Of a stretch of DNA of 64,000 nt, positions 21,001-24,000 are shown piece after piece. Within the stretch, counting starts at the first letter, position 1, and each line of letters starts with the position of its first letter. Location of the stretch: assembly GCA_016867495.1 (NCBI GenBank), contig VGJL01000001.1, forward strand, positions 92,153-156,152, in the 5' to 3' direction. This DNA is from Candidatus Eiseniibacteriota bacterium (lineage in GTDB: Bacteria > Eisenbacteria > RBG-16-71-46 > CAIMUX01 > VGJL01). The position numbers are program-made.

Positions 21001-24000
21001 TGAGCGCCGCGTCGTTCAATCGCAGCTTCGCCAGGGCCTCCTTCAGCTTCAGATAGTCGTCGTTGTCGATGGGGAAGAGACCCGAGTAGACCATCGGCTT
21101 CATCGGCTTGTAGCCCGGGAGGGGTTCGACATCCGAGCCGGCGTGCGCCACCGTGTCGCCGACCTTCGCCTCTGAGACGTTCTTTATGCCGGCCACGATG
21201 TACCCGACATCCCCCGCCTCGAGCTTCTCCTCGACGACCATCCTGAGCTGGAAGATCCCGACCTCGAGGACCTCATACTCCTTGCCTGTGGAGAGGATCC
21301 GGACGGTCTCGCCGGGCCGGACCGTTCCGTCCACGACCCTCACGTAGGCGAGCACTCCGCGGTAGCTGTCGAAGGCCGAGTCGAAGATGAGCGCCCGCAG
21401 AGGCGCCTCGGGCTTCCCCTTCGGGGATGGAATCTCGCGTATGACCGCTTCGAGGATCTCCTTGACGCCGATCCCCTCCCGGGCGCTGGTGAGGAGGACC
21501 TCCTCCTCCTTGTGCCCCAGGAGGTTCTGGATCTGCAAGCGGACTTCATCCACGCGGGCGCTCGGCAGATCGATCTTGTTGAGGACGGTCAGGACCGTCA
21601 GATCATGGTCGAGGGCCATGTAGAGGTTCGAGAGGGTCTGCGCCTCGATCCCCTGCGATGCGTCGACTAGCAGGAGCGCCCCCTCGCAGGCGGCCAGACT
21701 CCTCGAGACCTCATAGGAGAAGTCGACGTGCCCGGGCGTGTCGATGAGGTTCATCCGGTAGGTCCCGCCGTCCTCCGCCTCGTAGCGCATCGTGATCGCG
21801 TGGGCTTTGATCGTGATTCCACGCTCGCGCTCCAGGTCCATGTCGTCCAGGACCTGCTCGCGCATCTCCTTCTTGGAAAGCGTCTTCGTGATCTCGAGGA
21901 GTCGATCGGCCAGCGTCGATTTCCCGTGGTCGATGTGGGCGATGATGCAGAAGTTGCGCACGCGCGCGCGCTCGATCGTCAAGGGAGGACCTCGTAGCGC
22001 AGAAGGAAGGCGGAGTCTTCCTCGCGGAACTCGGCGTCGAATCGATCGAGATGCGCGTCCACATAGGCGTCCCCGACGCTCAGCAGGATCGTGAAGGCGC
22101 ACCACCAGAGGTAGTCCTTCTTGGTCGCCTTGTGGATCGAGGCGGTCCAGGGATCGCCCCGCTCGAGGGCACGATCGGCCAGGCGGTCCTCGTTCCAGAT
22201 GCCGTAGAGGAAGGCCGCCTCCACCCCGCCCAGCACCGCGGCCTTGAAGTACTGCCCGTTGTGGAGCTGTCCCCACCCCGGAAAGGCTGCCGAGCGCATC
22301 ATGACCCAGAGCGGCGCGTCGATTCCCCTGCCCCTGCCTACGCTCGACGAGTCGGCCGCGTCCGCGGCGCGGGCGGCGTCCGTCAGGAGGGGTGCCAGGA
22401 GAGACCCCAGGATCAGAACCGCGAGCGCGGCCGCCGGGCAGGGAGTGCGCGCTTTGAACTGGCGGGAACGTGTGGGAATCGAACCCACCTCGGACACTGT
22501 AATGCCCGACAGAGGATTTGAAGTCCTTGGGACCCACCAGGACCCATTCGTTCCCGCTCCAAACACGCCATGCACCCGGTGAGGATAGGTATCTGGCGCC
22601 CGCCCGGTCAACGATACGATCGCCGGCCCGCCGCCGGATCCGCTCAAGCGCCCTCGCGATCGGGCCCCGCTGCGGCGATCATGTCGATCTCGATTCGGGC
22701 CCCCTTCGGAAGGCTAGCGACTCCCACCGTGCTGCGGGCGGGAAACGGCGAGCCGACGCGCCTGGCATACTCCGCGTTGACGATCTCGAAGTCCCGCAGA
22801 TCGGTCAGGTAGAGCGTCGTCCTGACCACCCGATCGAGTCCCGAGCCGGCCGCTTTCAGGATCGCCTCCAGGTTGTCGAGGACCCTGGCCGCCTCGGCCT
22901 CGATTCCGCCGGACACGAGCTGCCCGGTCGCCGGGTCGAGCCCGATCTGGCCCGCTGAGAAGACCAGACGCGACCCGCGGACGACGATGCCCTGGCTGTA
23001 GGGACCCAACGCCGCCGGCGCCCCGCTCGTCTGGACGGCCTCCCGATCGCTCATCATCCCCTCACTCCACGGTGACGCTCTTCGCGAGGTTGCGCGGTTG
23101 ATCCACATCGCACCCGCGGAGCACCGCCATGTGATAGGCCAGCAACTGCAGGGGGATCACGGACAGCAGGGGGGTCAACGGCTCGAGCGTCTGGGGAACG
23201 TAGATCACGTGGTCGGCCAGCCGCTCCAGCTCCCTATCCCCCTCGGTCGCGATCGCTATGATCCGTCCCTTGCGGGTGCGAACCTCCTCCATGTTGATCA
23301 GGATCTTCTCGTACACCGAGTCGCGCGTGCAGATGAACACGACCGGCATGTTCTCGTCGATCAGGGCGATCGGCCCGTGCTTCATCTCGGCCGCAGGGTA
23401 TCCCTCGGCGTGGATGTAGGAGATCTCCTTCAGCTTGAGGGCCCCTTCGAGCGCGACCGGGAAGTTGTAGCCCCGCCCCAGATAGAGGAAGTTGTTGTGC
23501 TTCGCGTAGACCGAAGCGATCTCGCGTATCTTGTCGCTTCCCTCGAGACACCGATCCACGAGAGCGGGGATGTCCAGCAGAGTCTGGGTGAGCGGGCGGG
23601 CGGCCGGGAGAGGCTGCCCCCGCAGATGCGCCAGGTGCAGGGTCAGGACCATGAGGACCGCGACCTGGGTTGTGAACGCCTTGGTCGACGCGACGCCGAT
23701 CTCGGGTCCCGCGTGGGTGTAGATCCCGCCGTCGGCCTCGCGCGCGATCGTTGAGCCGACGACGTTGCAGATGCCCAGCACGCGCCCCCCCCGCCTCTTC
23801 GCCTCCCGGAGGGCGGCCAGCGTATCGGCGGTCTCGCCGCTCTGGCTGATCACCACGACGAGCGTGGAGGGATCGATCACGGGGTGGCGGTAGCGAAACT
23901 CCGAGGCGTACTCGACCTCTGCGGGGATCCGGCAGAACTCCTCGATCATGTACTCGCCGATCATCGCTGCGTGCCAGGAGGTCCCGCAGGCGGACAGGAT

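Follow-up and report, generated by a model that had tools for sequence, protein, structure and literature searches.

The steps by which bacteria insert selenocysteine (Sec) at UGA codons are established, and Sec-containing forms of SelD, with U at the catalytic Cys17 position, are known in many bacteria. In the selenocysteine tRNA (tRNA-Sec) of Escherichia coli, G73 and the long variable arm serve serylation, and the eighth acceptor pair, C7-G66, forms together with G49·U65 and C50-G64 an identity element for SelB that rejects EF-Tu (PMC9976931). Variants of tRNA-Sec described with Secmarker include 7/5 'Cloacimonetes-type' folds and a bulged nucleotide, 43a, in the anticodon stem (PMC5330540). 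Here we describe a tRNA-Sec gene (selC) in a stretch of 64,000 nucleotides, hereafter the window, from contig VGJL01000001.1 of a Candidatus Eiseniibacteriota bacterium (assembly GCA_016867495.1, positions 92,153 to 156,152). We are highly confident that this gene is a functional selC and that its product is the selenocysteine-specific tRNA(UCA) of its host, an uncultured freshwater relative of Candidatus Eisenbacteria. Some UGA codons of this bacterium are very probably decoded as selenocysteine.

Identity and architecture of the tRNA-Sec gene

An earlier note on this DNA, made from the sequence alone, had proposed a canonical bacterial tRNA-Sec at 22460-22555. ARAGORN returns exactly these coordinates as a tRNA-SeC with anticodon tca, one of three tRNA genes in the window, and places it on the minus strand, which the note had left unstated. 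The Rfam tRNA-Sec family RF01852 matches 22464-22555 on the same strand, scoring 72 bits where the gathering score is 47 (E 8.6e-13), and the match covers the whole model, from 1 to 91. Within clan CL00001, RF01852 outscores the generic tRNA model and is the best match. The check proposed in the note, a covariance model set against tRNA-Ser and tRNA-Leu, thus comes out in favor of tRNA-Sec with both tools. The parts of the gene are as follows.

22460-22555, minus strand: selC, the 96-nt tRNA-Sec gene with encoded CCA (ARAGORN and Rfam RF01852)
22548-22555, minus strand: acceptor 5' strand GGGAACGA, whose partner ACGUUCCC lies at 22464-22471 (structural parse)
22530-22545, minus strand: D arm, a 6-bp stem GGGUCC/GGGUCC with two G·U pairs and a 4-nt loop UGGU, a hallmark of tRNA-Sec
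22519-22521, minus strand: anticodon UCA, which reads UGA, in the middle of the loop CUUCAAA; the plus strand there is TGA
22460-22462, minus strand: encoded 3' CCA, with the discriminator G73 at 22463

Read from its 5' end, the RNA begins with GGGAACGA, followed by AU, the D arm GGGUCC-UGGU-GGGUCC and the anticodon arm CAAGGA-CUUCAAA-UCCUCU. It continues with a variable arm of 22 nt, the T arm GUGGG-UUCGAUU-CCCAC, ACGUUCCC, a single G and CCA. The linker between the acceptor and D stems is 2 nt long, 8 nt lie between the T stem and G73, and the variable arm has a stem of 7-8 bp closed by the loop UACA. ARAGORN assigns the anticodon to RNA positions 35-37 (window 22521-22519), within the 7-nt loop. 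The 6-bp D stem with its 4-nt loop, the UCA in a CUUCAAA loop, the long variable arm, G73 and the encoded CCA had all been claimed before and can each be read in the RNA. The gene shows none of the traits of tRNA-Ser, tRNA-Leu or allo-tRNAs, namely 7+5, 8/4 or 9/3 arms, a D stem of 3-4 bp with a large D loop, or a sense anticodon.

Conservation and covariation among relatives

To one genome per GTDB species we applied a pattern that fixes the D arm and the T arm only and leaves the acceptor and anticodon stems free. It matched 106 loci, mostly in metagenome-assembled genomes (MAGs) labelled Candidatus Eisenbacteria, Krumholzibacteriota, Latescibacteria and 'Fibrobacteraceae', with the remaining matches in Actinomycetota, Bacillota, Chloroflexota and others. 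Covariation was counted on the 59 distinct tRNA-Sec sequences of the related-phyla subset. There, 93.4% of stem cells are standard-paired and 11 pairs have changed on both sides; none of 500 shuffles reaches either value, and sliding the 3' partners by 1-3 columns lowers pairing to 33-59%. Across relatives the D stem is 99.4% paired and the variable-arm stem 99.8% paired, the latter with five pairs changed on both sides, and G73 is invariant.

When the sequence is folded singly, the z-score of the tRNA is modest (-2.66), and the minimum-free-energy structure has a shifted D arm in place of the canonical one; we dropped this fold in favor of the cloverleaf, which is backed by covariation. Nothing beyond these two observations speaks for a chance cloverleaf or an annotation artefact, whose probability we put at practically nil. 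It is refuted by an Rfam E-value of this size in 64 kb, by the 106 loci in several phyla, by the stem covariation in the 59 distinct sequences and by the conserved genomic position described below.

Closest to the window are two Eisenbacteria MAGs, L080 (CAWBWI010000001) and L071 (WJJW01000046), whose LepA proteins are 81% and 80% identical to that of the window, respectively. The tRNA is about 92% identical to theirs, as estimated from the alignment, and the flanks are mostly unalignable apart from a promoter-like box. Most of the differences keep the pairing (A:U to G:C in the variable stem, A:U to G:U, and U:A to U:G), and L071 has one extra A·C in the acceptor stem. Judged from these alignments, the tRNA-Sec is evidently under purifying selection, with compensatory changes in its stems.

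The same tRNA is found with 100% identity on metagenome contigs from samples 3300020074, 3300020084 and 3300020221 (Ga0194113, Ga0194110 and Ga0194127), which also encode the window's LepB identically. Other window proteins recur on Ga0194112, Ga0194126 and Ga0194111 contigs and in Logan assemblies. We take the Ga01941xx sets to be metagenomes from Lake Tanganyika. On one of these contigs, Ga0194127_10029479 (L003:1019-2775), lepA is split into two gene calls of 115 and 457 aa, which suggests a frameshift or an assembly error.

The eighth acceptor position and the top of the anticodon stem

The earlier note had described an 8-bp acceptor and a 5-bp T stem. The T stem and the 8 nt on each acceptor strand stand, but the eighth base pair does not: the acceptor forms seven Watson-Crick pairs followed by A·A, which leaves 12 standard pairs in the 13-position acceptor/T helix. 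The eighth acceptor position is non-standard in all 59 of the distinct related sequences as well. The anticodon stem has four clean pairs, above which either A28·C44 and C27·U45 are mismatched or, with C44 bulged, A28:U45 and C27:G46 form. This arm is found unchanged in L071 and L080, and position 27:45 is unpaired in 47 of 50 relatives. A second clade (L017, L020, L027, L054, L055, L100 and L103) has the anticodon arm CGGGGA...UCCUGCGG, and the bulged reading pairs A28:U45 in the window clade, G28:C45 in the second clade and C27:G46 in both.

Because the irregularities at the eighth position and in the anticodon stem are common to the relatives, we regard them as norms of the family and not as defects; irregularities of this type have already been described in bacterial tRNA-Sec (PMC5330540). 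The word 'canonical' was therefore slightly generous: the 8+5 layout holds, but the eighth acceptor pair is never standard in the group and the anticodon stem is irregular at its top. A conserved non-standard eighth position would suit a role in SelB identity and EF-Tu rejection. One might go further and see in the tRNA-Sec of Eisenbacteria and its sister candidate phyla a distinct structural subtype, defined by an eighth position that is always non-standard (mostly purine·purine) and a mismatched or bulged top of the anticodon stem, although we think this unlikely. If the eighth-position mismatch were the lineage's antideterminant against EF-Tu, or if the window's clade, from whose selC locus selD has gone, used its tRNA without a linked Sec-type SelD, Sec-tRNA recognition would take a modestly new form here.

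Across all tRNA-Sec loci with the D arm UGGGYCCUGGUGGRYCC (L004-L109, several phyla), a set selected on that arm, the eighth acceptor position is mismatched in roughly 93% of the sequences. In this set the mismatch joins two purines in the Eisenbacteria-related group and in Bacillota, and in Actinomycetota it is U·C.

Non-canonical tRNAs in which a long acceptor/T helix is combined with a stop-codon anticodon exist in environmental bacteria. A serine-inserting opal suppressor or 'allo-tRNA' with a UCA anticodon, using EF-Tu instead of the Sec machinery, would fit an eighth acceptor pair that is not Watson-Crick, as here. We hold this to be extremely unlikely. The gene combines 8+5 arms, a D stem of 6 bp closed by 4 nt, and G73, a set of features specific to tRNA-Sec; its score exceeds the RF01852 threshold by 25 bits, and its orthologue adjoins a UGA-containing selD in sister genomes. 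The unpaired eighth position itself speaks against the use of EF-Tu, as it falls within the box that in E. coli confers SelB identity and rejects EF-Tu (PMC9976931).

Genomic neighborhood and a promoter-like box

Along the direction of transcription, and all on the minus strand, the genes are pgm, glmS, ridA, tRNA-Sec, an ORF of the DUF5683 family, lepA, lepB, hemW and glycosyltransferases; tRNA-Thr(CGU) and tRNA-Phe(GAA) lie about 4 kb upstream of the tRNA-Sec. The features next to the tRNA are listed below.

22644-23057, minus strand: ridA (Ribonuc_L-PSP), upstream, with a gap of 88 nt to the tRNA
22582-22611, minus strand: promoter-like box TTGACC-18 nt-TATCCT, ending about 27 nt before the 5' end of the tRNA
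21979-22497, minus strand: DUF5683-family ORF directly downstream of the tRNA (gene call and a weak match to Pfam PF18935), a neighbor kept in relatives
20180-21982, minus strand: lepA (elongation factor 4), downstream (Pfam GTP_EFTU and LepA_C)

The description of the tRNA as 'upstream of lepA' is right in that lepA follows on the same strand, but the DUF5683 ORF intervenes. The called start of this ORF is a GTG inside the 3' half of the tRNA-Sec, giving a 38-nt overlap, and the true start is probably further downstream.

The order pgm-glmS-ridA-tRNASec-DUF5683-lepA-lepB-hemW is kept in MAGs labelled Eisenbacteria, Krumholzibacteriota and Latescibacteria, and among related loci where a LepA match is listed, the LepA beside the tRNA-Sec is 57-81% identical to that of the window. 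Since this block is conserved across related candidate phyla, the tRNA has been vertically inherited at an old, stable position and is not carried on a mobile element. The possibility that selC serves here as an integration site for a genomic island, as in E. coli, was rejected because the genes around it keep their order from phylum to phylum.

The TTGACC/TATCCT box is the sole promoter-like match in 21900-23200, where shuffles lead one to expect 0.1. Both hexamers are kept in L080 and L071 (TTGACC, a spacer of 17-18 nt, and TATCCT or TATTCT), in contrast to the remainder of the intergenic region. Conservation of both the tRNA and this box in three diverged species is strong evidence for a gene in use. 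We found no terminator-like site after the tRNA in the same scanned region, and read-through from the tRNA into DUF5683-lepA is possible.

Selenocysteine decoding in the lineage

In 13 related loci, selD adjoins the tRNA-Sec and has a TGA at the position of the catalytic Cys17 of E. coli, within the motif G-U-A-[A/S]-K-L-G-P.

selD genes with in-frame TGA: L103 (5664-6746, minus strand), L023, L041, L043, L045, L057, L058, L063, L074, L081, L094, L097 and L102

Eisenbacteria MAGs among them include L041, L081, L102 and L103. At the Actinomycetota loci the codon at the Cys17 position of selD is TGC. The 20 nt that follow the selD TGA region (AAGCTGGGTCCGGAGGACCT) hardly vary between loci, synonymous sites included; they form a hairpin that looks like a bacterial selenocysteine insertion sequence (SECIS) element. 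The order ridA-selD-selC-DUF5683-lepA recurs in further Eisenbacteria MAGs at NCBI and in dozens of metagenome contigs. A selD with an in-frame TGA and a conserved hairpin in sister Eisenbacteria indicates that the lineage decodes UGA as Sec. The earlier note had made this claim for the organism itself; it holds for the lineage on the strength of the 13 loci, and for this organism it is not proven.

In the sister genomes, both our ORF lister and the protein database start selD about 30 residues late, past the TGA.

The note had also stated that the window holds no sel genes, and this was borne out. A six-frame tblastn of the window with E. coli SelA, SelB and SelD matched only the GTPase domain of LepA, which is a cross-match to SelB. 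Pfam scans of 30 window ORFs, and the Pfam hits around the tRNA, contain no SelA, SelB or SelD (AIRS) domain. Two in-frame TGA candidates were rejected on translation: the TGA at 2952-2954 (minus strand) is a true stop between pheT and a PBP4-like peptidase, and that at 54835-54837 (plus strand) is a true stop between a pilin-like protein and a DUF4900 protein. Scanning codon usage for TGA codons with coding signal on either side yielded no credible candidate, but the scan also missed its positive control, the selD UGA of L103, and has little power for Sec codons near an N-terminus.

We also looked for the organism's own selD. A protein search with an Eisenbacteria SelD gave hundreds of matches at about 70% identity, and the three that were looked up (P0002, P0062 and P0072) come from other samples or MAGs. 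Scanning metagenomes with the DNA motif formed by the selD UGA and its hairpin gave at least 120 matches, and among 80 of these contigs the only one from Lake Tanganyika was L185. A selA-selB-selD operon on L161, reached through the same scan, was set aside as the contig is from Candidatus Binatia and not Eisenbacteria; such an operon is also present in one MAG labelled Eisenbacteria, a label that could not be verified.

Several observations weigh against a working Sec system in this organism. Within Eisenbacteria, the loci compared as carrying a Sec-type selD between ridA and the tRNA are L103, L112-L116, L237 and L238, whereas the window (22556-22643), L071 and L080 have only a spacer of about 88 nt there. 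The clade of these three thus has no selD at its selC locus, and loss of the Sec trait in it is conceivable. We found no selA, selB, selD or recognizable selenoprotein gene in the window and about 10 kb past each of its ends, about 84 kb in all. The Sec-type selD fragment of L185, the one such fragment found in a Lake Tanganyika sample, is of a different sequence type and is not assignable to this organism. The window, L071 and L080 share an A·C mismatch (or bulge) in the anticodon stem where most relatives have a pair, and L071 has a second A·C in its acceptor stem, which may point to slightly relaxed constraint. On this evidence selC could be a relic, left over in a clade that lost the Sec trait and no longer serving Sec insertion.

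We nevertheless judge a relic very unlikely. The three species differ by about 20% of LepA amino acids, yet their tRNAs have remained about as similar as given above, with pairing mostly kept, and the promoter-like box has been retained while the flanking DNA diverged past alignment; a tRNA gene out of use would have decayed. Adjacency to selD is, moreover, not the general state, as many related phyla keep the tRNA without selD at the locus.

Proposed function

In our reading as a functional selC, the gene would be transcribed from its own sigma-70-like promoter, possibly on into DUF5683-lepA, and its encoded CCA would make CCA addition unnecessary. Seryl-tRNA synthetase (SerRS) would charge the tRNA with serine by way of G73 and the long variable arm. 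SelA would then recognize the 6-bp/4-nt D arm and the 13-bp acceptor/T helix and convert Ser to Sec with selenophosphate from SelD. SelB, not EF-Tu, would bring the tRNA to in-frame UGA codons that have a SECIS hairpin after them. We infer that the gene is expressed and its product charged, and that selA, selB, selD and the selenoprotein genes lie elsewhere in the genome.

The gene marks an uncultured, Eisenbacteria-like population of Lake Tanganyika as a probable user of selenocysteine. Gene callers will truncate or split the selenoprotein genes of this population at UGA, and its UGA-interrupted genes deserve re-examination.

Other features of the window

At 2952-6349 (minus strand), the window encodes a PheRS that looks like the archaeal/eukaryotic-type two-subunit form and not the usual bacterial one. 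Its alpha subunit, of about 505 aa, has the class II core confined to residues 232-503, and its beta subunit has about 625 aa, with B5 and tRNA_synthFbeta domains. Two long ORFs have no Pfam match: one at 8760-13652 (plus strand, about 1459-1630 aa) adjoins a DUF6599 protein, and the other at 41447-44638 (minus strand, about 1063 aa) adjoins a TonB-dependent-receptor-like gene at 44639-47503. The myo-inositol-1-phosphate synthase gene at 31222-32604 (plus strand), next to a LysR-type regulator, has an unusually high third-position GC (0.90).

A large region at 47787-63999 resembles type IV pilus and type II secretion systems and encodes several N-methyl pseudopilins, one of which has 957 aa with fn3 and 3-keto-disaccharide-hydrolase-like domains. 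The region also encodes DUF4900, a secretin, PilO, PilN, PilM, a prepilin peptidase and an 895-aa protein with Big_1/invasin repeats. A second PilM/secretin/T2SSE set lies just past the right end of the window (L245).

Comparison with known systems

The gene is an ordinary selC of a known family, of the kind found by standard tools (ARAGORN, tRNAscan-SE and Rfam), and mechanistically it is nothing new. With E. coli selC and the RF01852 family it shares the UCA anticodon in a CUUCAAA loop, the 13-position 8+5 helix, the D stem of 6 bp and D loop of 4 nt, the long variable arm, G73 and the encoded CCA. It differs from E. coli selC in the A·A at the eighth position, where E. coli has C7-G66 (PMC9976931), and in an anticodon stem whose top is mismatched or bulged.

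The tRNA-Sec variants with a bulge at 43a (PMC5330540) offer a parallel to the second of these differences, since one reading of the window's anticodon stem bulges C44 and is backed by G28:C45 in the second clade. The acceptor, which forms only seven standard pairs, likewise recalls the Cloacimonetes-type folds (PMC5330540). Unlike the 7/5 (12-bp) helix of that type, however, the window's tRNA keeps the 13-position geometry, with a purine·purine apposition at the eighth position and the usual 2-nt linker.

In its setting, ridA-selC-DUF5683-lepA, the window's selC is not linked to selA or selB, unlike the Actinomycetota and Bacillota loci. Sec-containing SelD, with TGA at Cys17 and a hairpin after it, is a feature of the relatives and not of the window, and it bears on the lineage.

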